43,388 bases of DNA from the IMG/VR virus record IMGVR_UViG_2698536418_000010. The stretch is one strand, 5' to 3'. The notes under the pieces were generated by a model. That model was not told the origin of the DNA, did not search any database, and worked only from the letters and a program-made list of their open reading frames with translations. The position numbers were made by a program, and so were the translations under genes. Source of the stretch: a virus (Duplodnaviria; Heunggongvirae; Uroviricota; Caudoviricetes). Positions 2,094-14,765 of the stretch are shown in pieces (position 1 is the first letter of the stretch; each line of letters begins with the position of its first letter).

Positions 2094-2903
2094 TTATTCT
2101 TCTGAATTATCGATTACACTGTATTCCCCGGTTAATACAGAGGAGTCTGCCGGATCGATTGTCAGTGGTTCCTTTTCATCCATTGATACTGCACGCTGGA
2201 TTTCAATTGAGACAGGCAGGTATTTAAACAGGCGACGAATAGCCGTTTTTTTTGCCATTTCTTCCCAGTGAGTTACCCATGGCCCGTTATTACCAGCCTT
2301 ACTCTGGCTGCGCACCAGTTCAATCTGTTTGCGCGTCATAACTTCAAACTGAGTCCCTCCGTCTTTCAGTCTTGCGACAGCATAGACGTGGGTCACTGGT
2401 GCATCTTCGTTTTCTCCCGGGCGGTGTATTAACTTTTCATCAAGGCCAAATTCAAAACTAAACTCGTCACCTTCACGGACAACACGGGCTGACAGGCTGG
2501 CGATTTGACCAGAACGGCGAGCCAGATCAATCATGCCGCGATAACCAATGATTAGCTGAACGTTCTTTTTACCGCTCTTTTCGTTTTTATTACCAAAAGG
2601 CAGTAAATATGCGTGGCCGAGGGCGCTACCTGGCTCAAGGCCGAGCTGTGAACACTGAACGATCGCACTGACAAAACTCATGGTGTCACAGTTTCCTAGC
2701 GCCGGAACCTTACGAATTTCTGTGGTGGCGATACGTATCATTCGTTCAGCCGTCATATGGCGTGGGAGAGCTGCTGCCAGTTGCTCTTTCATTGATGGCT
2801 GATTAATAAAGCTGATCACGTCGTTATTTTTTACTGCTGCTGGTGCACGGTTTCCCTGGGTTTTTTGCAGATCGGCTTTTGCGATAGGTGGTTGCTTAGT
2901 CAT
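2094..2903 (-). CDS. recT: RecT single-strand annealing protein
   Basis: Near-identical to recalled Rac RecT ([24 protein letters not shown]…); AAGGAG RBS 7 nt upstream of ATG at 2903. Confidence 0.9.
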
Positions 2904-5571
2904 TTGCATACTCCTTAGCCCAGCGGGGCAGTGATAACGTTTTAATAGCTGGCCATTCATCGGTATTCAGGCAGTCAGCCAGGGTCCTCAGATTGCGGTG
3001 ATATTCCTGCTGGCCTGCCAGTTTTGCTTCTTCGCCCATCATGAAAATCTCAACCGGGTAACGTCCGCATTCAACAGTTGTGCTGGCAACCAGAAAAACG
3101 AAAGTTGGCAGCACACCAAACTGTGCTTCATAACCGTCACTGTAGAATGCATCCTGAACGTGATAGCGGTAGTCGTAATAAGCCGTTTTGAATCGTTGAA
3201 TATCCGCTGTGGTTTTCACGTCCATGATCCAGTGAAATTCAGGGATAATTTTGTCCGGACGGCACCGACACAAAATTCCTGTTTCAGGATCTTCCCAGTA
3301 AATTGATGATTCAGCGTGTCCGGCGCTTTCAACAAGCCATTGACCCAGCGGCAAAGCCATAACGCTCTGATACATGAGTTCAATTTTCCGGCCTTCTTCG
3401 GCAGTGATAACCGTTTTTCCTGTGCTTGCGCATTCCATCAGAAACGCTTTCTCCTCTTCTTTTCCGGCGGTTGTACGGCGGTTAAATTCAGGTGCCACGA
3501 TAAAGCGGTTACTGAATTCTTCCGGTTCAAGTACACGGCAGTGGAAAGCGGTTCCTAAATCGAGCGTTTTTGTCTTTGTGGTGTCCGCTGGGGCATTTTT
3601 ACGCCACAAATACAGAGCCGGAGTATCAGCAATGTCGTCGAGCTGAGACTTACTGACACCGGGACCCGCGTGGTAATTCTCATTCGAAATTCCGTAATAA
3701 ATACCAGGCTCTATGTCTCCTGCGATTACGGGATCTGCGACTTCGCCAGTTTCATCACTGCAATCGCGATGCGGATCGCTGCCAGCATTCTCATTGTGCG
3801 GATGTTCAGGGCCTTCCATTTCCTCCGGATCTTTTTCCTGAGATTCATCCAGATTTTCTTCATTAAAGGTTTCCTGATATGTGGTGTCGCCCATCACCGC
3901 GCCACAATCAGGGCAGTTGCCGCCACCGCTCTGACCGCGGGCGGCACAGACTTTTTCCGGTTCCTGTTGCGCTACTGGTTCAGATTGTTTCGTTTCTGGC
4001 TCATTTTTCTGTGCATTTTGGCTGTTTTGTTCCGCTTTCTGGTTGTTTTGTTCCGATTTGGGCTGGTTCTGGTTCACAGAATCTCGGGTTTCAATTCCCT
4101 TAACCCATTTCGGATCATTCGGGTCGCTAATCCCTTCAACAAATTCTCCGCGAGAGGCAGCCAGTAATTTGTCTGCATCGACAGGATTTTTGGGCGGAAT
4201 GTTTTTCCGGGCTTCATAGAGTTCTGCCCGCAGTTTCTGATATTTCGCATCAACAGAATTTACCTGTGACTGAGCATCCAGCGGCTGCGTGTCCTGATGA
4301 TGTTCAGTTGCATCCGGTTCCACTGTTTCAGCCGTTGCCTGTTCATCTGCCATTGCGCAAGATGGTTGCAGTTTTTCTTCATCATCCTGTTTTTCTTCTT
4401 CTGTTACACGCTGCGGCATCGGGGCAGAGGAACGACCGCAGGCAATATCCACGATTTCTGGATCAGGGTTGGCATGATCAGTTTCAGTCAGTACTTTGTT
4501 AAGATATTCAGTGACGTGTGCGGGGATAACCTCGATCCCAATTGGTGCTTCTTTTACGGACGCAACCACGATGGCGCGGGAATAATCCAGCCCGCCAGGC
4601 ATGGTGATGAATTTGTCGCGGAAAACAGAAAAGGGCGGTTTATTTTCAGCGATAATTTCCTCGACACGTTTAGCGTGTGCCGGATGAAGGTTATAAATGT
4701 CCACGTCCATTGAACGAGCCAGTACGCCAGTGGCTACGTCGCGCGCCAGTGACGTCAGATCGTGAATGAAACCTTCGCCGCGATCGGTGAGGTTCCCGCC
4801 GCCAGCATTAGCGCCGGAAGCCGTGCGCGTGATGCGTGAAACACGGTTTCCTTTCATCCACTCTTTTGTCAGCAGACCGCGATCGGTGTAGTCTGCGTCC
4901 AGGTATGCTTCGAAAAAAGCAGTCATCAGCCCCAGGCTTGAATTGCCTGGATTAGGGAAAACTCTGTCAGTATCACGCACCAGTTTGTGGAGATCGCGAA
5001 TTTCCAGCGGGTCGAGCAGGCTGGTTTTGTGGGAAACAGCCAGGGCAGTAACAGCTGGTAGTTCTTCAGCTCGTGCAATGTGTAATGCCTGTAGTTCGTT
5101 GCGTGAAACGTGCGTTACCGGTTTTTCGCTGCCGTGTTGAGCAAGCCAGCGAATGGGCAGCTCCTGACCGGAAATCGGGAGTAGCATATTCTCCTCAATC
5201 TCCGTCATGTCTTCGCCATTAACATTGGTATTGTCAGTGCTGGCTGGCTTGTCCTGCGCAGAGGATGAGGGCGCGATAAATACCATTGTGATGCCATCTT
5301 CCCCGCCTTTTTCGTAACGGTTGCAGAATTCCGTATCAAATACGCCTTCTGGTGGAAGGTCATCAACAACGGGCAAATTGACGCGAACAGGTTTTTTAAA
5401 GTCATCTTCATCGTAGCCAGCATCGTCAATCGCAACAGCACCACGGGAGATGGCAATGGATAATTTTTTCGCTTCAGCCCAGTAGAAACCGCCTTTAATA
5501 CCGAGACGTTTTCTTACTTTGTCATTTTTTGCTTCGTAATACAGTGGGTAAACTTGTTTATCGGTGCTCAT
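2896..5571 (-). CDS. recE: RecE exonuclease VIII (891 aa; N-terminus diverges from K-12 RecE)
   Basis: Long ORF; C-terminal two-thirds matches recalled RecE (…[13 protein letters not shown]). Confidence 0.9.
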
Positions 5572-7278: not shown

Positions 7279-7698
7279 TTACTCCGGTGGGGGATTATCT
7301 TTAAGCCTGCCTCTCAAATATTTTTCTACATACTCATCGATTTCTTTTAGCCGGACTTCAAATAGCTCAATCATTCGTTGTTGTTCTGAGCCCGGTAGCT
7401 GGTTAAACAACTCAAGAAGTTTTCGTTGGGATTCATTTAACCACAATTCAGAAGATTCCTGTTCTCCAAAGAGGAGCTCAGGAGGAGATATGCCAAGTGC
7501 CTTTCCCAATATGACAGCGTCATGCACTCCAACATTTCTGCTGCCCGCCTCATAGTTACCTATACGCGATTGCGTCCATCCGCAGATTTCAGCAAGTTTT
7601 CCTTGAGATAAACCAAGCTTCTGCCTGCGCTCTTTAAGACGCATTGCAATTTTGTCATTGAGCCTACTAGCGGCAATTTTTTCGTTTTCTTTTTCCAT
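7279..7698 (-). CDS. Prophage repressor, DicA/RacR-like HTH (XRE family, no S24 peptidase domain)
   Basis: HTH motif LSQGKLAEICGWTQSRIGNYEAG; C-terminal LLELFNQLPGSEQQ resembles DicA; divergent from cro-like gene. Confidence 0.8.
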   Translation of the reverse strand: MEKENEKIAASRLNDKIAMRLKERRQKLGLSQGKLAEICGWTQSRIGNYEAGSRNVGVHDAVILGKALGISPPELLFGEQESSELWLNESQRKLLELFNQLPGSEQQRMIELFEVRLKEIDEYVEKYLRGRLKDNPPPE

Positions 7699-9331: not shown

Positions 9332-10078
9332 ATGAAAAATATTGCGACAGGAGGCGTTCTGGAGCGTATCCGCAGACTGACCCCACCACATGTAACCGCC
9401 CCATTCAGAACGGTTGCGGAGTGGCGTGAGTGGCAACTTGCTGAAGGCCAGAAACGTTGCGAGGAGATCAACCGCCTGAATCGTCAGTTGCGGGTGGAAA
9501 AAATTCTGAATCGCTCTGGCATCCAGCCGTTGCACCGTAAATGCTCGTTTGCGAATTACCAGGTGCTGAACGACGGCCAGCGATACGCGTTAAGCCAGGC
9601 GAAATCCATCGCCGATGAACTGATGACCGGGTGTACAAATTTTGCGTTCAGCGGAAAACCTGGTACCGGGAAGAATCACTTAGCGGCAGCTATAGGGAAT
9701 CGCCTGCTGAAAGACGGTCAGACAGTGATTGTGGTTACCGTGGCTGATGTTATGAGCGCCCTGCACGCCAGCTATGACGACGGGCAGTCAGGCGAAAAAT
9801 TTTTGCGGGAGCTGTGCGAAGTGGATCTGCTGGTTCTTGATGAAATTGGCATTCAGCGCGAGACGAAAAACGAGCAGGTGGTGCTGCACCAGATTGTTGA
9901 TCGCCGGACAGCGTCGATGCGCAGCGTGGGGATGCTGACAAACCTGAACTATGAGGCCATGAAAACATTGCTCGGCGAGCGGATTATGGATCGCATGACC
10001 ATGAACGGAGGGCGATGGGTGAATTTTAACTGGGAGAGCTGGCGTCCGAATGTTGGTCAGCCAGGAATTGAGAAGTAA
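9332..10078 (+). CDS. ydaV: DnaC-like helicase loader (YdaV)
   Basis: Walker [16 protein letters not shown], Walker B LLVLDEIG; near-identical to recalled Rac YdaV. Confidence 0.9.
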
Positions 10079-10100
10079 TTTTTACCGGGAGGAAGTTTTA

Positions 10101-10862
10101 ATGGAGACTGTTTTTGACGCACTGAAAGCAATGGGAAAAGCCACATCCATAGAACTTGCTGCGCGACTTGATATCAGTCGTGAAGAAGTGCTGAACGAAC
10201 TATGGGAACTGAAAAAGGCTGGTTTTGTTGATAAAAGCGCGTACACCTGGCGTGTGGCTGATAACAACGTTCAGCAGGAACAGCCAGCGCAGGCAGAACT
10301 GCCGGAAGAAACCACCACAGCAACAGTAGCGAAAATCTCAGAGTGCGATTTAACCGCAACGATTGAACAACGCGGACCACAAACGGCTGATGAGCTGGCT
10401 ACATTGTTTGGTACCACATCACGCCAAGTGGCTTCAACGCTGGCAATGGCAATCAGCAAAGGTCGTCTGATTCGCGTAAATCAGGGCGGTAAATTTCGTT
10501 ACTGCATACCGGGCGATAATTTACCAGCAGAGCCGAAAGCAGCATCGGTAGCGGAAACTGATGGTAAACCCCTTCCTCAGCCAGCAGGTGTTGCGTTACC
10601 AGTACAGGAAGCTGCTACACAGGAAGATATTAAAACAGAAACTGTAGCGGACATTGTGAAGTCGTTGCCATCGTTCACTGAAACGCAAGCGGATAATCTG
10701 TTTTTACCATCGCTGCATATGGCAAATCGCGAACTGCGTCGGGCGAAAAATCATGTCCAGAAGTGGGAGCGTGTCTGCGCCGCGCTGCGGGAGCTGAACA
10801 AACACCGGGATATTGTCCGACAGATTGTCGATTCATCCGGTCGTATTGTGTCGGAAAAGTGA
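10101..10862 (+). CDS. Hypothetical prophage protein (YdaW/DUF1627-like)
   Basis: ATG at 10101 preceded by GGGAGGAAG; 253 aa. Confidence 0.65.
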
Positions 10863-10877
10863 TTGTCGGAGGCGCTT

Positions 10878-11300
10878 ATGGCAAAAGTATTTACACAAGA
10901 AGAGCGGGAAAAAATTAAGGGGCAGGTTGTTGAACTCGTGCGCCAGAGCGGACGCGAGACGTTACGGCAACTGGAAGCCAAGACAGGTGCGACAAGATAT
11001 CTGATGAGTGCTCTTGCCAGAGAGCTGGTTGCCAGTGGCGATGTATACAACTCTGGTTACGGGTTATTCCCGTCTGAACAGGCGCGTAAGGACTGGCAAA
11101 ACGCCCGCAAAAAACTCTCAAGGGCAAATCTGAAGAAACCATCTGTGGTTGATCCTGACCTTATCTGGCCATTACCAGACGGAGAAATACGCCGCTACGA
11201 CAGGCGTCAAAACATAATCTGTAGCGAGTGCCGGAAGAGCGAAGCTATGCAGCGTGTACTGGCTTTCTATCAGGGTAATTTTCAGAAGGTGCTGTTGTGA
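10878..11300 (+). CDS. Hypothetical protein with C-terminal Cys pair
   Basis: ATG at 10878 with GGAGG RBS; track ORF uses an upstream TTG. Confidence 0.65.
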   Translation: MAKVFTQEEREKIKGQVVELVRQSGRETLRQLEAKTGATRYLMSALARELVASGDVYNSGYGLFPSEQARKDWQNARKKLSRANLKKPSVVDPDLIWPLPDGEIRRYDRRQNIICSECRKSEAMQRVLAFYQGNFQKVLL

Positions 11301-11347
11301 GCCAAATTAACAATCGGAACTTCGTGAAGAGAAAGCATAATCCAAAT

Positions 11348-11398
11348 CTGAATAATTAAGTTCAGCACTGTAAATAAAATTTAATCCTTAACTGGAGG
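11348..11398 (+). repeat. Module-boundary repeat copy 1 (ctgaataattaa…tttaatccttaacNggagg)
   Basis: About 50-bp near-identical direct repeat of 12615-12663. Confidence 0.6.
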
Positions 11399-11405
11399 TA
11401 TATCT

Positions 11406-11618
11406 ATGTCAAATACACAGAAAATTATTAACACTGAAAAATATAACGAGTGGGTGAAAAAATTCTCTGAGCAGATTTTTAAAATTACTGGCGACGAGAA
11501 TGTGGCAAAAAATGAATTGGAACCGTGGACACCTGAAGGAAACGCACCAAATTATTGCTGGTGGGAGGTTGATCCGGTTGATGCTGCAAATGAAGCCATG
11601 AGTTACCACAACGATTAA
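11406..11618 (+). CDS. Small hypothetical protein (70 aa)
   Basis: GGAGG RBS inside the repeat, ATG at 11406. Confidence 0.55.
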   Translation: MSNTQKIINTEKYNEWVKKFSEQIFKITGDENVAKNELEPWTPEGNAPNYCWWEVDPVDAANEAMSYHND

Positions 11619-11628
11619 TGTCGGGAGG

Positions 11629-11644
11629 CCGCCCGAAAGGGCGG
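11629..11644. repeat. GC hairpin ccgccc-gaaa-gggcgg (copy 1)
   Basis: Perfect stem-loop, repeated at 12692-12709; no U-run. Confidence 0.6.
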
Positions 11645-11650
11645 TAAGAA

Positions 11651-11869
11651 ATGACTACATTATTCAGAAAAGAATATCCGCAAAAAAGTAGGGCGACAGA
11701 ATTTTTGTTTCTCATTCTGTTTATCGTATTGATGATACCGATATCCCCTCTAATTTTTGTCTGGGCAATCGGGAAAATAATTGAGCCAGTTACTGAATTG
11801 TATAACGACGTGGTATGGGCGTCATTCAACACACTGCACAATAAAATTAATCCGTATAAGGAAAACTGA
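11651..11869 (+). CDS. Small membrane protein (72 aa)
   Basis: Hydrophobic core FLFLILFIVLMIPISPLIFVWAIG. Confidence 0.5.
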   Translation: MTTLFRKEYPQKSRATEFLFLILFIVLMIPISPLIFVWAIGKIIEPVTELYNDVVWASFNTLHNKINPYKEN

Positions 11870-11870
11870 T

Positions 11871-12134
11871 ATGGCAACTTTGACAAAAAAAGAACGGGCA
11901 TGGTTGAACGAATTACAGGAAGTTCTTGATCGCTGTCCATCACCGAAAAAAATTGGCTTTTACACCATTGGCGATAAAAGCATTTACCTGTATGACCTAC
12001 GCCGCATGGATGAAATCATGGAGGCTCTTGATAATCGTTCGTCGATGGATTGGTGTGTTGCTGTTCATGATATGAATGCAGGGTTTGATGAAAAGATTTT
12101 GTTCCCCTCATCAGTTGAAAGCACTGCGGGTTAA
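11871..12134 (+). CDS. Hypothetical protein (87 aa)
   Basis: AAGGA RBS, ATG at 11871 right after previous stop. Confidence 0.6.
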   Translation: MATLTKKERAWLNELQEVLDRCPSPKKIGFYTIGDKSIYLYDLRRMDEIMEALDNRSSMDWCVAVHDMNAGFDEKILFPSSVESTAG

Positions 12135-12144
12135 GGAGTAACAC

Positions 12145-12288
12145 ATGACCACTATTACCAAAGAACGTATTGAATTGTTCATTAAATTTTCAGGAGGCGG
12201 TACTGTGAGTGAAATTAGCTATCAGGCTTCAATTACCGCTGGCATTCGCATCAAAGGAGAGGAGCATGGAAATAAAACCAGAGGATGA
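12145..12288 (+). CDS. Possible small protein (47 aa)
   Basis: Strong AAGGAG RBS 7 nt upstream of ATG 12145; overlaps next gene; hand-translated. Confidence 0.35.
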   Translation: MTTITKERIELFIKFSGGGTVSEISYQASITAGIRIKGEEHGNKTRG

Positions 12289-12622
12289 GTTAAGCAATAT
12301 CGTTTTATTTCCGGTAAAAGAGGATGACCCTCGTAATCAGGTTAATTTTCTTTATGAGCCATCGGAAAGACCATATTGTCATCACGCCTCTGTCCGGGTT
12401 GACGAAAAAGAGCGTCAGGTCCGCTGTAAAATCTGCGGTGCAGTTGTGGAACCATTTGACTGGATGCTCTCTGTGGCGAAAAGAGAAACCAGACTGGCAG
12501 ATGATGTAAGGCTCTTGCGTCAGGAGGAGCGGGAAAGGCGAAAAAATATAGAAAAGCTAATTCAGATTGAGCGTAACGCGAAAGCGCGGATACGCAGGGC
12601 GACAAAATCCAGAACTGAATAA
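12266..12622 (+). CDS. Hypothetical zinc-ribbon-like protein (118 aa)
   Basis: AAGGAGAG RBS; CHH…CKIC motif. Confidence 0.6.
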   Translation: MEIKPEDELSNIVLFPVKEDDPRNQVNFLYEPSERPYCHHASVRVDEKERQVRCKICGAVVEPFDWMLSVAKRETRLADDVRLLRQEERERRKNIEKLIQIERNAKARIRRATKSRTE

Positions 12623-12663
12623 TTAAATTTAGCTCTGTTAAAAATTTAATCCTTAACCGGAGG
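12615..12663 (+). repeat. Module-boundary repeat copy 2
   Basis: Near-identical to 11348-11398; here followed by no ORF. Confidence 0.6.
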
Positions 12664-12691
12664 GATTTCTGCACCCTTAGAACATCAGGAA

Positions 12692-12709
12692 GCCGCCCGA
12701 AAGGGCGGC
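12692..12709. repeat. GC hairpin gccgccc-gaaa-gggcggc (copy 2)
   Basis: Identical core to 11629-11644. Confidence 0.6.
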
Positions 12710-12720
12710 GGTTCCATTGT

Positions 12721-13018
12721 TTAACTATCTAATATTGTGCTAAATCTTTTTATAACCATCAAGAATGTTACTACGGTAAAAAAGAAGGATGAGTATGCTA
12801 AATAACTGATTATGTAAGCAGGGGTTGCGAAATACCATTTTTTTAATTCACTTGGGGGTTCTGGGAGAAAATATATTGCAACCGAAAAAATAACTAACGC
12901 TACAGATGTTAATATGGCATAAGAAACATTGTGACATAATTGCTCATATACGGTTTTATTATTATTTAAAATTATTAGATTTGAACGTGGTTTGTTGTTT
13001 TCCTCAATGTCTGAAATT
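12721..13018 (-). CDS. Open +1-frame continuation of the membrane protein gene (adds 2 predicted TM helices); reachable by a 1-nt change in the A7 tract
   Basis: No stop in the +1 frame from 13017 to 12724; encodes …YAILTSVALVIFSVAIYFL… and …YIISYLAYSSFFFTVVTFLMVI…; no in-frame ATG/GTG/TTG start. Confidence 0.4.
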
Positions 13019-13276
13019 TTAAATACAGTTTTTTTGTTTTTGATCGTAGATCATAATAACCGCGCTCATTAATAGTGCGGTAGTAATTGCTCCAAAGTTA
13101 ACAAAAACAGATGCGATAGAGGTTTTCATTATCCCATAGGTAAAACATATGATTAATGATAATGTAAGAGGAATGATGAAGTGTATTGCGATGTCTTCGA
13201 GTAAAATATTTCCGCGTTGATCCGACATTGTTGTGTAATGTTTTTTTATTACACTCATTACGTTAATCTTGTTCAT
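13019..13276 (-). CDS. Small 2-TM membrane protein (85 aa), translationally coupled to upstream gene; candidate effector
   Basis: ATGA overlap with 310-aa ORF; two hydrophobic helices; AT-rich. Confidence 0.7.
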   Translation of the reverse strand: MNKINVMSVIKKHYTTMSDQRGNILLEDIAIHFIIPLTLSLIICFTYGIMKTSIASVFVNFGAITTALLMSAVIMIYDQKQKNCI

Positions 13277-14205
13277 ATTTTTACTCCCCCATTACCACTA
13301 TGTAACTCACTTAGTATATCATTCGCAATGATTTTAACAGTGTCATGAAGTGCTTTAAGATCGGGGATTCCTGTAGATGCGTTTATGTTTAAGTCGTTAT
13401 CATCTAATTCGGCAGAAATTCCTTTTCTTAAGATGGTGTCGTAATTAAAAATGACTGTTCTATTGCCTAATTGTAAACTAACTTTTATTGCGTCACACTT
13501 ATCTTCAATTATTTCTATTATATTTCCTAGTTTTTTGTCTTTTAAGTCTTTAAAACTACCAAATACGCCTTGATTTGCTTTTATTACCAAATCAGTTTTG
13601 ATGTTTGTTTTGTTATTTCCGAATGAATCCGTGATGTCCTTTGGTGCTTTGTAACCTTGGGCTTTTATTTGTTTTAATTCTGAATCAAGGATGTGTTGGG
13701 GAATTTTTTTGTGGCAAAGGGGATTGATTCTCGCTTCAAGTTTATATTTTGTTTTCAAGTGGTCTAGTAATGCATCAGAGAGTGTGCTGCGAGCAGAAAT
13801 ATTGTCATTAGCGTGAAATGCTATAATCCCTTCTTCTAAATTGTCTGGCAAAAATATTAAAATGTAACGCTGTTTGAGAGTTACATCGTTGATAGTTGTT
13901 GTATAACGTATTTTAGTAAGTTTATCGTCTTTTATTTCACTGCTCTCACCATATTTCCCAACCTTTACATATCCATATATTACTTGGTTTTGAGCATCAA
14001 AGGTGAGTGATGTGTGTTGTTCAAGAGAAACCTTTGTTTTCGAGAGACCAAATTCAATAGGTGTGTTTTTATAGCTATTAAAATACTCAACAAATAATTC
14101 ATATGCTGTTTTTTTATCGCTTAAACCTAGGTTGTTTAGTCTTTTGCTGGTTCGGCTGCCCTTGTGGGTTAACACACGGAATGAATAGAAGTTAACGCTG
14201 TGCAT
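13273..14205 (-). CDS. Hypothetical 310-aa soluble protein, first gene of AT-rich accessory cassette (candidate Abi/exclusion sensor)
   Basis: AAAGGA RBS before ATG at 14205; low GC relative to flanks; no nucleotide-binding motif seen. Confidence 0.8.
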   Translation of the reverse strand: MHSVNFYSFRVLTHKGSRTSKRLNNLGLSDKKTAYELFVEYFNSYKNTPIEFGLSKTKVSLEQHTSLTFDAQNQVIYGYVKVGKYGESSEIKDDKLTKIRYTTTINDVTLKQRYILIFLPDNLEEGIIAFHANDNISARSTLSDALLDHLKTKYKLEARINPLCHKKIPQHILDSELKQIKAQGYKAPKDITDSFGNNKTNIKTDLVIKANQGVFGSFKDLKDKKLGNIIEIIEDKCDAIKVSLQLGNRTVIFNYDTILRKGISAELDDNDLNINASTGIPDLKALHDTVKIIANDILSELHSGNGGVKI

Positions 14206-14529
14206 GAAAAGTCCTTTTGAACATATAGGAATATATTAGAGCATGTATGTGTGCAATGCATAAAAGGAAAAGCTACCGCAAGGCGACTCCACCCACAGAT
14301 AGCTCTTAACTGATTGTTTGTAAAAAATAATACATTAATTATCTTCTGTGTAAAGAGGGAAACAGCCTTAGGGTAAGGGACACGAGTTGGAGGAGGATTG
14401 GTGAAATTTGCGTTGAGGATAAAACGATTTGCGGGAAAAGGATAGTTAAGTAGAATAGCTGCGGGTGCTTGAGGCTGTCTGCCTCGGGCATGAACACCAA
14501 CGGCAGATAGATAAAAGCCCCACCCGACT

Positions 14530-14600
14530 ATAAATCGAAGTGAGGCCCCTATATGCTCGTCACATATAGATTGCCTCTTACGGACCGAAAGGTCAAGGAG
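14530..14600 (-). ncRNA. Expected position of Sok-like antisense RNA (approximate)
   Basis: By analogy with hok/sok loci where antisense RNA overlaps the mok/hok leader; boundaries not defined. Confidence 0.25.
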
Positions 14601-14609
14601 AAGCAGGCT

Positions 14610-14765
14610 ATGAAGCAGCAAAAGGCGATGTTAGTCGCCCTGATCGTCATCTGTTTAACCGTCATAGTGACGGCACTGGTAACGAGGAAAGACCTCTGCG
14701 AGGTACGAATCCGAACCGGCCAGACGGAGGTCGCTGTCTTCACAGCTTACGAACCTGAGGAGTAA
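14610..14765 (+). CDS. hok: Hok/Gef-family type I toxin (51 aa)
   Basis: MKQQKAMLVALIVICLTVIVTALVTRKDLCEVRIRTGQTEVAVFTAYEPEE; in-frame upstream extension from 14553 (mok-like). Confidence 0.9.
   Translation: MKQQKAMLVALIVICLTVIVTALVTRKDLCEVRIRTGQTEVAVFTAYEPEE

Follow-up and report, generated by a model that had tools for sequence, protein, structure and literature searches.

Organization of the locus

The window analyzed here is a 43,388-nt stretch of DNA from a tailed virus (Caudoviricetes; IMG/VR record IMGVR_UViG_2698536418_000010). Its accessory region contains, downstream of a DUF977 gene, a duplicated A/T-rich linker and two copies of a G+C-rich hairpin that bracket a cassette of four small genes and are followed by a convergent AT-rich cassette and a sok/hok toxin-antitoxin locus (Table 1).

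A previous sequence-only reading of this region had described a linker of about 50 bp ending in GGAGG and an identical hairpin behind each linker copy. The duplication and the terminal GGAGG (SD1 in Table 1) were recovered in a repeat search of the window; the repeat itself is longer. Direct repeats D1 (11336-11377 versus 12603-12644, 81% identity) and D3 (11376-11405 versus 12641-12670, 90% identity) can be written as a single alignment of 11336-11405 with 12603-12670, with 58 identities over 70/68 nt and one 2-nt gap. Similarity thus extends about 12 nt further to the left than the limits originally given (11348-11398 versus 12615-12663; 44 identities over 51/49 nt) and continues for 7 nt to the right of GGAGG. 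The 22-nt linker core occurs exactly twice in the window (0.00 expected), and two exact 17-mers are repeated, against a shuffle mean of 0.04. The hairpin core GCCGCCCGAAAGGGCGG (17 nt), identical at 11628-11644 and 12692-12708, has only these two matches in the window, even with up to three mismatches allowed (0.15 expected). Identity of the hairpins is confined to this core: at the seventh stem position, copy 1 has T (11645) and forms a G-U pair, and only copy 2, with C (12709), forms a G-C pair, so that the 3' arm reported as gggcggc holds for copy 2 only. The other details of the description were confirmed, namely, a 70-amino acid open reading frame (ORF70) starting 7 nt past the GGAGG of copy 1, a gap of 28 nt (12664-12691) between GGAGG and hairpin in copy 2, and no U-run after the hairpin of copy 1; directly 3' of the copy 2 hairpin, the sequence is GGUUCCAUUGUUUAAC. 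A third repeat that had escaped notice, D2, is 39 nt long (11277-11315 versus 12185-12223, 77% identity).

Table 1. Features of the junction region, numbered by position in the window
Feature	Coordinates	Strand	Details
D2 copy 1	11277..11315	+	DUF977 gene 3' end and GTG start (11297) of remnant ORF
20-codon remnant ORF	11297-11359	+	GTG start; runs into element copy 1
Element copy 1, left arm (linker)	11336..11405	+	Repeat search, nhmmer; CTGAATAATTAA 11348-11359, A/T-rich spacer, SD1 GGAGG 11394-11398 serving ORF70
ORF70	11406..11618	+	phrog_4659; optional passenger gene within element
Element copy 1, right arm	11617..11650	+	SD2 GGAGG 11624-11628; spacer AAGAA before ATG 11651
Copy 1 hairpin	11628-11634 / 11639-11645	+	7-bp stem; loop GAAA 11635-11638
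Cassette bracketed by copies 1 and 2	11651..12622	+	Four genes
DUF4014	11651-11869	+	First gene of bracketed cassette
87-aa ORF	11871-12134	+	phrog_1714
47-aa ORF	12145-12288	+	Contains D2 copy 2
D2 copy 2	12185..12223	+	Inside 47-aa ORF
118-aa ORF	12266-12622	+	phrog_1621; last codons GAA TAA within element copy 2
Element copy 2, intact empty form	12603..12709	+	nhmmer, homology end point; CTGAATAATTAA 12615-12626, SD1 GGAGG 12659-12663, degenerate SD2 GGAAG 12688-12692
Copy 2 hairpin	12692-12698 / 12703-12709	+	Stem; loop 12699-12702
Lengthened stem, copy 2 (predicted)	12688..12715	+	GGAA (12688-12691) pairs with UUCC (12712-15) from cassette side
Convergent AT-rich cassette	12710..14420	-	GC 31-36%; fills variable slot from hairpin to hok/sok
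Truncated membrane-protein gene	13019-13276	-	85 aa in window; 184 aa in L096
310-aa protein	13273-14205	-	Predicted RexA/RdgC-like fold
sok/hok toxin-antitoxin locus	14463..14765	+	Conserved right border of variable slot

Linker and hairpin as one junction element

Profile comparison indicates that the linker and the hairpin are two halves of a single intercistronic junction element of about 95 nt that is present in Rac/lambda-like prophages of Escherichia coli. A profile of 79 distinct "empty" copies (among the matches listed) spans copy 2 from end to end (12615-12708, profile positions 1-94, 101.8 bits in nhmmer). On copy 1, the same profile aligns in two pieces, positions 1-56 with 11348-11405 and positions 67-96 with 11617-11646, with ORF70 in between. 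Given this match, the initial view of linker and hairpin as two separate boundaries was abandoned. A search of Rfam 15 at E <= 10 found no family for the element, the sok locus being the only match in the window (14463-14612, 102.9 bits).

The element occupies the intergenic space, after the stop codon of the upstream gene and before the start codon of the downstream gene. From 5' to 3', it consists of CTGAATAATTAA, an A/T-rich spacer, a first Shine-Dalgarno motif (SD1), an interval of about 25 nt, a second motif (SD2, GGAG), a hairpin with a 7-bp G+C stem that abuts SD2, and an A-rich spacer of 5-8 nt before the start codon. Several unrelated upstream genes end at CTGAATAATTAA, which holds stops in all three frames; because mostly one frame (...GAA TAA) is used, a role as a stop block for any frame is not demonstrated.

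ORF70, a member of phrog_4659 with relatives found only in Escherichia and Shigella, takes the place of some 11 nt of the intact form, and the replacement runs precisely from its start to its stop codon. Among approximately 170 sampled units in the matches listed, the interval between linker and hairpin is empty (49-50 nt) in 134 and contains ORF70 (243-250 nt) in 37, and none of these units has another occupant. The proposal of a module boundary with a slot for swapping small genes is accordingly retained with respect to the reused boundary, and not with respect to the slot: the interval is only empty or filled by ORF70, and shuffling occurs outside the element. Nor is copy 2 a vacated slot, the empty form being the common intact form and not peculiar to this window. 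Two other readings of the interval were considered and discarded. A mini-ORF in the empty form would lack an ATG, GTG or TTG at a usable distance from SD1, and the length of the G-run after SD1 varies; an ancestral ORF continuing through the hairpin (...QEAARKGG) is at odds with the ORF70 relatives, which are all about 70 amino acids long and never extended. The clean start-to-stop replacement and the variable G-run would also suit an element without a function of its own, that is, a deletion scar of an ancestral SD1-ORF70-hairpin-gene arrangement that became abundant by hitch-hiking with successful accessory genes, recombination and gene conversion. We regard this origin as possible, if rather doubtful, and return to it with the hairpin.

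Distribution of the element and reassortment of flanking genes

The element was found in 1752 of 5426 complete E. coli genomes, with up to five copies each, which places it, by sequence matching, in lambda-like prophages of about a third of the genomes of this species. It is always co-oriented with the flanking genes. Carriers include Rac-like prophages and the mEp460 and Stx2a/ArgO145 phages, and in mEp460 and ArgO145 it lies among, and in the orientation of, ead/ea22-type accessory genes. Among 133 non-identical units in the matches listed, at least 13 unrelated upstream and at least 18 unrelated downstream context clusters are freely combined. The earlier suggestion of a reused module boundary is thus well borne out in related prophages, where the element does occur at gene junctions and is not restricted to this window. 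The sample of units was seeded with exact 21-mers, so the invariance of the core is in part a product of its construction, and the figures refer to the matches listed.

Variation along the element points to where the exchanges take place. Single-nucleotide polymorphisms (SNPs) follow the upstream context if they lie in the left arm (MI/H 0.7-1.0) and not if they lie in the right part (0.1-0.5), a gradient that places crossovers inside the element; SNP linkage falls off gradually across it. The best E. coli matches to the window (98-99% identity) end exactly at 12708, as does homology to most relatives; E. coli ATCC 25922 carries the region at 98.3% identity. One relative, L064, lacks the four-gene cassette, with ORF70 and the first hairpin joined straight to the AT-rich cassette that follows the second hairpin in the window, a natural variant with the crossover within the hairpin. 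In another, L040, the end of the DUF977 gene is joined through D2 to the region of the 47-aa and 118-aa ORFs that follows 12185, with the crossover inside D2. The two copies do bracket a cassette of small ORFs, as originally noted: relatives lack the four-gene unit, and the crossovers fall inside the repeats. These comparisons show, at the level of sequence, that the element is a shared patch of homology at which flanking genes reassort, and that the four-gene cassette was lost or never gained in relatives via crossovers inside the element copies and D2.

Such exchange probably proceeds by short-homology recombination, and the prophage itself encodes RecT (2094-2960) and RecE (2896-5571). According to published values, Red-beta requires at least 23-27 bp for pairing and RecA at least 31-34 bp (PMC3945230). 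The longest exact stretches common to copies 1 and 2 measure 17 nt, below these lengths, and exchange between the window's own two copies would be rare.

Different cassettes abut the hairpin at exactly one base, and in phage ArgO145 the second gene downstream of one copy encodes an HNH endonuclease. These features might recall a small mobile repeat or a system for site-specific insertion of cassettes at the hairpin, such as an attC-like hairpin recognized by a recombinase, a MITE or a homing-endonuclease target. We consider this extremely improbable. The window encodes no integron-type integrase, its only integrase being of the lambda type (232-1308), and the element has neither terminal inverted repeats nor target duplications. 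Moreover, the hairpin has a stem of only 7 bp within 18 nt, compared with the 57-141-nt imperfect palindrome of attC, no further copy lies at the right-hand end of the AT-rich cassette, and the gradual decay of SNP linkage is that expected of homologous exchange.

The Rac prophage of strain K-12 lacks this region because it is deleted after ydaW. A search of genome contigs with DUF4014 yielded three loci.

The hairpin and its proposed role in translation initiation

The position of the hairpin relative to the next gene is highly regular. Of 79 distinct variants (among the matches listed), 78 have GGAG immediately before the 5' arm of the stem, the sole exception being copy 2 of the window. For at least eight unrelated downstream genes, the ATG follows 5-8 nt past the stem, and the spacer contains no SD motif. 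SD2 is 22-25 nt upstream of the ATG in linear distance, farther than the roughly 15 nt beyond which an SD would be too distant, and an SD motif of their own at normal distance is missing in eight of nine downstream gene families; the exception carries TGGAGATAATAATG. The 7-bp stem with a GAAA loop is predicted to fold at -14 kcal/mol (approximately -14 to -19 kcal/mol for the copy 1 hairpin), leaving an effective SD spacing of 5-8 nt, and a hairpin of -7 kcal/mol or better is predicted in 22 of 26 sequence variants.

By analogy with bacteriophage T4 genes 38 and 25, we infer a hairpin-bridged SD. On the mRNA, the hairpin would loop out the 16-18 nt between SD2 and AUG, reducing the linear 22-25 nt to an effective 5-8 nt, and any gene joined 3' of the hairpin would gain a working ribosome-binding site, as in the two T4 genes. 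In these, the SD-AUG spacing is reduced from 22 to 5 nt (gene 38) and from 27 to 11 nt (gene 25) (PMC3014915). The regular order of GGAG, hairpin, 5-8 nt and ATG indicates that the hairpin functionally belongs to the downstream gene and more probably serves translation initiation than the stability of the linker-driven ORF's 3' end. Taken as a whole, we think it reasonably probable that the locus is explained by a junction element that combines short-homology exchange with a hairpin-bridged SD.

Genes that occur both with and without the hairpin are consistent with this assignment. DUF4014 genes were found behind the hairpin in 99 instances and without it in 27, all of which have an SD-type motif at the canonical position, 21 of them as AAAGGAGAGTGAT-ATG and 6 as the weaker AATGGGAGTGAT-ATG. 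Likewise, a gene whose product begins with MTELTKEQL is preceded by the hairpin in 35 instances, and the five instances without it carry AAGGAAAACTGAA-ATG or a close variant; the alternation between canonical SD and hairpin represents only two or three independent junction alleles. In silico removal of the 16-nt hairpin yields GGAGG, 6 nt and ATG, the spacing of the canonical version.

The sequence-only reading had suggested that the hairpin might be an mRNA stability or processing element. In that case, RNase E would cut in the A/U-rich linker and the hairpin would shield the downstream 5' end or the upstream 3' end, uncoupling the decay of neighboring cistrons. A stable GNRA-type hairpin without a U-run beside a single-stranded A/U-rich stretch agrees with this explanation, as does the retention of the hairpin even where no co-oriented gene follows. 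What it leaves unexplained is that GGAG always abuts the stem, that the next ATG is always 5-8 nt away and has no SD of its own, and that the same genes have a canonical SD where the hairpin is missing. We therefore judge a stability element to be unlikely.

Substitutions in the stem bear on both explanations, as well as on the deletion scar. Changes from C to U on the 5' arm, after which a U-G wobble remains, are much more frequent than changes from G to A on the 3' arm (about 21 versus 3 cells). This asymmetry fits a structure in plus-strand RNA, a tolerance that a stability element would share and that would not be expected of neutral DNA. Covariation in the stem is statistically null, the sequences differing too little: paired cells amount to 93.8%, as they do in shuffles, with one double change, and six variants have an uncompensated A-C at one stem position. 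What looked like a compensatory change in L148 proved to be a register shift. The lack of significant covariation is compatible with a scar, as are the contexts in which the hairpin has no obvious job. It is kept ahead of the gene that has an SD of its own (TGGAGATAATAATG) and ahead of cassettes that are convergent or carry a promoter (in the window, L040, L064, L096 and L112), where a split SD is not needed, and therefore could simply hitch-hike with the element. Against a scar speak the conservation of GGAG at the stem and of the stem itself in the variants counted above, and the downstream genes that are left without any SD, although they otherwise have a canonical one. Two alternative pairings, SD1 (GAGGG) with CCCTC and, in RNAalifold, UCCUU with AGGGA, are possible, neither with covariation support.

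Copy 2 and the convergent cassette

Copy 2 adjoins the AT-rich cassette, as reported, and the convergent cassette directly abuts its hairpin; no co-oriented gene follows. The predicted stem is lengthened here to 11 bp with a GG bulge (-23.1 kcal/mol, z = -4.5), and L040 and L064 have the same extension. With SD2 decayed to GGAAG and apparently paired into the lengthened stem, this hairpin would more likely mark the end of the rightward transcript.

This raises the question of whether the hairpin in general is a terminator or pause site of the early-right operon, similar to tR2, that partitions the accessory genes unless an antiterminator is present. The G+C-rich stem is compatible with such a role, and in copy 2, L040 and L064 the 11-bp stem has a tail of moderate U content behind it, where the transcription units converge; the tail AUUGUUU of copy 2, with the longer stem, is borderline for an intrinsic terminator. 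The usual tail, by contrast, is UAAGAAAUG, UAGUUAAAUG or UAAUGAAAAAUG, without a U-tract, and the hairpin stands 5-8 nt before the start codon of a co-transcribed gene, up to five times per genome. Furthermore, promoter and terminator scans called nothing at copy 1 or copy 2, the hairpin included. A general role in termination thus appears very unlikely to us.

From the loop and the location, an N-utilization site was also rejected. The loop varies (GAAA, GGCA, AAAA, UAAA), unlike the conserved GNRA-like loop of boxB, which lies just downstream of an early promoter; here, over 3 kb separate the copies from the cro-like gene upstream, and they recur from one accessory gene to the next, in other operons too.

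Comparison with L001, in which homology resumes at 14421, and with other relatives shows, from sequence, that the 3' edge of the hairpin is the left border of a variable slot, occupied here by the convergent AT-rich cassette. Alternative contents are a pair with the predicted RexA-like fold, a queH-like gene or a DUF7167 set; the L001 copy of the element lies upstream of DUF7167. A Rex-like phage exclusion pair would consist of a RexA-type protein encoded beside a multi-pass membrane partner. The 310-aa protein of the cassette had no match in PADLOC, Pfam, NCBIfam or PDB sequences, and the cassette proteins have no sequence similarity to lambda RexA/RexB. The 184-aa partner in L096 appears, by eye, to be a multi-pass membrane protein. 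No second copy of the element was found at the right border of the cassette.

Relation to known systems

The idea of modular phage evolution goes back to Susskind and Botstein (1978), and boundary sequences were described in HK620 by Clark et al. (2001), both as cited in PMC3029335. Like the boundary sequences of lambdoid phages, the element is a short conserved intergenic sequence with unrelated flanks in different phages and crossovers inside it. Unlike these, a single sequence of about 95 nt is repeated at several junctions of one genome, occurs also among ead/ea22-type genes in other phages, is carried by about a third of E. coli genomes, and has translation signals and an optional passenger ORF. 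The element may be among the 2001 set. We regard the element as a clear example of the known boundary-sequence idea, and not as a new kind of system, because it probably combines a ribosome-binding site across a hairpin with a shared patch for shuffling. Few concrete, abundant examples of such linker sequences are available, and here the joints, the reassorted flanks and the natural recombinants are visible in public genomes.

The split SD of T4 genes 38 and 25 (Nivinskas et al. 1999; Malys and Nivinskas 2009; summarized in PMC3014915) resembles the element in an SD 22-25 nt from the AUG, a stem-loop in the gap, an effective distance of 5-8 nt and no SD at the normal position. The T4 device serves one gene, whereas the element is a portable junction that would serve at least eight unrelated genes; in T4, the function has been shown by mutagenesis, whereas that of the element is deduced from sequence. 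If confirmed, a device documented for single T4 genes would be a portable part of many prophage genes, which matters for start-site annotation and for expression design. A stronger interpretation, which we put forward tentatively and think unlikely, is that the element is a selected, self-contained "standard connector" consisting of a stop block, a hairpin-bridged ribosome-binding site and short homology for RecT/Red. If so, any incoming frame would be ended and any downstream gene would be translatable without its own SD, and the connector would be kept for a freely recombinable pool of accessory genes, including defense cassettes, across operons and phages.

The intrinsic terminators in the nin region of lambda, tR2 among them, are likewise G+C-rich hairpins that lie past the replication genes in the early-right operon. 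Unlike them, the element lacks a U-tract and lies directly before a co-transcribed start codon, and the resemblance is limited to the lengthened stem at the convergent cassette.

A literature search with the hairpin sequence gave no match. The prophage small RNAs AgvB, AsxR and Pas were set aside, since published accounts place them at or close to the PR' moron site or the lysis genes and not at this junction, and the Pas paper contains none of the element motifs. The one hairpin match in a different setting, on the otherwise unrelated contig L138, falls within a 218-aa ORF that closely follows a 401-aa ORF and was taken as chance; by their layout, we took the 401-aa and 218-aa ORFs to be a P2-like capsid protein and small terminase subunit.

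Finally, the slot to the right of the hairpin resembles the sites at which morons are inserted in lambdoid prophages (Juhala et al. 2000, as cited in PMC4104026), where a fixed position takes alternative, often AT-rich, independently expressed cassettes. The documented moron site is downstream of PR', whereas the slot described here follows the accessory genes and extends from the hairpin on its left to hok/sok. With its candidate exclusion or defense cassettes, this slot would be a practical place to seek new ones.

A single element at gene junctions

The linker and the hairpin are the left and right arms of one intercistronic element of about 95 nt. Scanning IMG/VR by exact words (the linker core, and GGAGG plus hairpin), we recovered at least about 175 loci; these were seeded with exact 21-mers, up to 120 per scan, so that the counts are samples and the invariance of the core is partly built in. 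Among the matches listed, the distance from linker core to hairpin is 49-50 nt in 134 units and 243-250 nt in 37, and the remaining 11 are hairpin sequence variants or contig ends. A profile of 79 distinct short units matches copy 2 end to end (12615-12708, 101.8 bits) and splits on copy 1, with positions 1-56 on 11348-11405 and 67-96 on 11617-11646; the 70-aa ORF between them, ORF70, thus takes the place, start codon to stop codon, of some 11 nt of element sequence. The sequence-only reading had regarded copy 2 as an empty slot, a view that is not supported: this "empty" arrangement is the common, intact form, that of the 134 units. ORF70 belongs to phrog_4659. It has 121 relatives, all close to 70 aa long, with 84% identity or more among those of full length; in 5.8 billion proteins, the only sources named for them are Escherichia and Shigella. 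ORF70 is a young orphan gene, placed exactly inside the junction element.

In 5' to 3' order, the element comprises CTGAATAATTAA, at which at least four unrelated upstream genes terminate in the frame …GAA TAA; an A/T-rich spacer; ATCCTTAACCGGAGG, the first Shine-Dalgarno sequence (SD1); GATTTCTGCACCCTCAGAACATC; AGGAG(G/A), the second (SD2); the stem [G/A]CCGCCC-GAAA-GGGCGG[T/C]; an A-rich spacer of 5-8 nt; and the ATG of the next gene.

The duplication first noticed in the window is confirmed. A repeat finder returned the direct repeats 11336-11377 and 12603-12644 (81%), 11376-11405 and 12641-12670 (90%), and 11621-11644 and 12685-12708 (92%). A whole-length alignment of the two linkers has 58 identical positions in 70/68 nt and one 2-nt gap; within the 51/49 nt originally described, 44 are identical. 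The hairpins had been called identical, which holds for 17 nt and not for 18, because copy 1 has G-U, and copy 2 G-C, as its seventh stem pair. ORF70 begins 7 nt past the copy-1 GGAGG, and 28 nt separate GGAGG and hairpin in copy 2, the latter as had been read. The 43 kb contain two matches to the 17-nt hairpin core (0.15 expected) and two to the 22-nt linker core (0.00 expected), and no more.

Genomic setting and distribution

The window is a Rac/lambda-like E. coli prophage, in which the element copies lie just 3' of the replication-side genes and DUF977, and 5' of hok/sok and NinB-type genes.

Features of the prophage and coordinates of the element copies
Feature	Coordinates	Remarks
Integrase	232-1308	left part of window
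RecT	2094-2960	left part of window
RecE	2896-5571	left part of window
Repressor	7279-7698	minus strand; immunity region
Cro-like and YdaT-like genes		immunity region
O-like gene		after immunity region
DnaC-like gene	9332-10078	
DUF1627	10050-10862	
DUF977	10863-11300	
Third repeat	11277-11315, 12185-12223	
20-codon ORF	11297-11359	
Element copy 1	11336-11405, 11617-11650	split by ORF70
ORF70	11406-11618	
Shared ribosome-binding block	12248-12265	5' of 118-aa ORF
Element copy 2	12603-12709	"empty" form
AT-rich cassette	12710-14420	minus strand
Membrane-protein gene	13019-13276	minus strand; in cassette
hok/sok type I toxin-antitoxin locus	14463-14765	Rfam sok 102.9 bits; Hok ORF 14553-14765

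Of 5426 complete E. coli genomes, 1752 contain the element by megablast with copy 2 as the query, with as many as five sites in a genome and 14 on plasmids; these counts are not independent events, given the high redundancy of E. coli prophages. It is also present in 21 deposited phage records, including Rac-like phages, mEp460 and Stx2a phages such as ArgO145. Linker and hairpin thus recur at gene junctions of related prophages, which bears out the reusable module boundary proposed from the sequence. In ArgO145 and mEp460 (loci L176 and L177), the element lies among ead/ea22-type accessory genes, in the same orientation as these, and not after replication genes, so that the neighbourhood of the module appears to differ. 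ORF118-, ORF70-, DUF7167- and DUF4014-sized genes surround two element copies in ArgO145 (L176 1372-3314), matched by size, with sequence-level homology checked only around the ORF70, DUF7167 and DUF4014 starts; an HNH endonuclease gene follows DUF4014 there. The region is lost from K-12 Rac and present in ATCC 25922 at 98.3% identity.

The element as a recombination joint

Clustering the 133 non-identical units by context gives 13 groups on the upstream side and 18 on the downstream side, the common ones pairing in many combinations, with or without ORF70. Polymorphisms of the left arm are linked to the upstream context (normalised mutual information 0.7-1.0) rather than the downstream one (0.2-0.5), and those of the right part to neither (0.1-0.5), a pattern that crossovers within the element would produce. 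In E. coli, the best matches to the window, at 98-99% identity, stop at 12708, the final base of the shared hairpin core. Two natural variants have the predicted products of crossovers in the repeats. In L064, ORF70 and hairpin are fused directly to the AT-rich cassette, without an equivalent of 11645-12684; in L040, which lacks about 11292-12184, the DUF977 end is joined through the third repeat to the ORF47/118 region. These patterns argue that the element is a recombination joint.

Rad52-like recombinases can join sequences that are short and diverged, and need a pairing segment of at least 23-27 bp, as against 31-34 bp for RecA (PMC3945230), and exchange here may proceed through the prophage-encoded RecE/RecT. 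The two window copies share exact runs of only 17 nt; element copies of different phages have much longer identical stretches in common.

"Boundary" or "linker" sequences have been proposed for lambdoid phages (Susskind & Botstein 1978; Clark et al. 2001, as cited in PMC3029335). The element shares their conservation, intergenic place with unrelated flanks and internal crossovers, and we file it as a further member of this kind. Three other assignments were rejected: an intrinsic terminator (no U-tract after the stem), nut boxB (variable loop, wrong place) and an integron attC site (the only integrase is of lambda type, and the hairpin has 18 nt). The element fits no Rfam family, and neither a promoter-like nor a terminator-like site was called in it.

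The hairpin and a predicted split Shine-Dalgarno

The hairpin dominates the predicted fold in all contexts examined, with z of about -2.8 to -3.5 for short constructs around copy 1 and -1.85 for the whole 125-nt element of locus L001, and is kept at -7 kcal/mol or better in 22 of 26 sequence variants. Covariation was not demonstrable because the sequences are too similar (93.8% of cells paired, equal to shuffles; one double change). Changes are lopsided, C-to-U in the 5' arm, which leaves a U-G wobble, in about 21 cells versus G-to-A in the 3' arm in about 3, and fit a plus-strand RNA structure.

GGAG directly adjoins the stem in 78 of 79 variants, and eight or more unrelated genes have their ATG 5-8 nt past it, with no SD in that spacer; most other genes of these operons have the SD core 9-13 nt 5' of the start. 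When the hairpin is absent, two genes carry an SD-type motif at the canonical position: DUF4014 (99 instances after the hairpin, 27 without) has AAAGGAGAGTGAT-ATG in 21 and the weaker AATGGGAGTGAT-ATG in 6, and the MTELTKEQL gene (35 and 5) has AAGGAAAACTGAA-ATG or a close variant. The GGAG position, ATG spacing and SD alternation point to a role of the hairpin in translation. Deleting its 16 nt on paper leaves GGAGG, TAAGAA and ATG, the spacing of the canonical form. A stem-loop in T4 gene 38 cuts the distance from 22 to 5 nt, and one in gene 25 from 27 to 11 nt (PMC3014915), an arrangement matched by the SD2-hairpin-ATG order. From these features, we infer that SD2 and the start codon are most likely brought together across the hairpin, a candidate split SD whose sequence-level features the element has; we give this reading about an even chance, because its basis is two or three independent junction alleles.

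Copy 2 and the variable slot

Copy 2 has no co-oriented gene after its hairpin, and its SD2 is GGAAG, the sole such case among the 79 variants. This SD2 is predicted to pair with a cassette-side UUCC, which lengthens the stem to 11 bp (-23 kcal/mol, z = -4.5). L040 and L064 share the extension; the cassettes of these two are only 76-80% identical to that of the window. The copy-2 hairpin is more likely to mark the end of the rightward transcript than an initiation region.

The AT-rich cassette (GC 31-36%), a convergent two-gene unit, occurs in 36 of 5426 genomes. In relatives, the stretch from hairpin to hok/sok holds a DUF7167 gene set (L001) or a gene encoding 228 aa with a CCAPC motif (L112 1454-2140, on the minus strand of that locus), which begins some 75 nt past the hairpin and which from its sequence we take to be of queH type. 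This makes the hairpin the left border of a variable slot, of which hok/sok is the conserved right border. The membrane-protein gene of the cassette encodes 85 aa versus 184 aa in L096, its frame breaking near an A-run at about 13019-13040; it is either a real pseudogene or the product of a homopolymer sequencing error.

Neighbouring small ORFs and other junction sequences

One exact GGAGG plus hairpin 21-mer, in L138, was treated as a chance match rather than a true copy: it lies in the coding sequence of a 218-aa ORF (11415-12071; …QAQEAARKGGNE…) on an otherwise unrelated contig. This ORF is directly 3' of a 401-aa ORF; judging from the layout, the two are presumably genes for a P2-like capsid and small terminase subunit.

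A 20-codon ORF (MSQINNRNFVKRKHNPNLNN), its GTG overlapping the DUF977 stop, extends into copy 1; its start resembles an "SEI(N/S)YQ" stretch (12185-12223) within the 47-aa ORF, and other phages have 15-16-codon variants (MSEINYQALREEEKA) 5' of the element. Either a gene remnant or a conserved leader peptide would account for it. The 118-aa ORF has a second shared ribosome-binding block, ATCAAAGGAGAG, 5' of it, whose AAAGGAGAG core stands 5' of DUF4014 in other phages (L235, L242, L247), after several unrelated upstream sequences; this block, too, may be a reusable junction.
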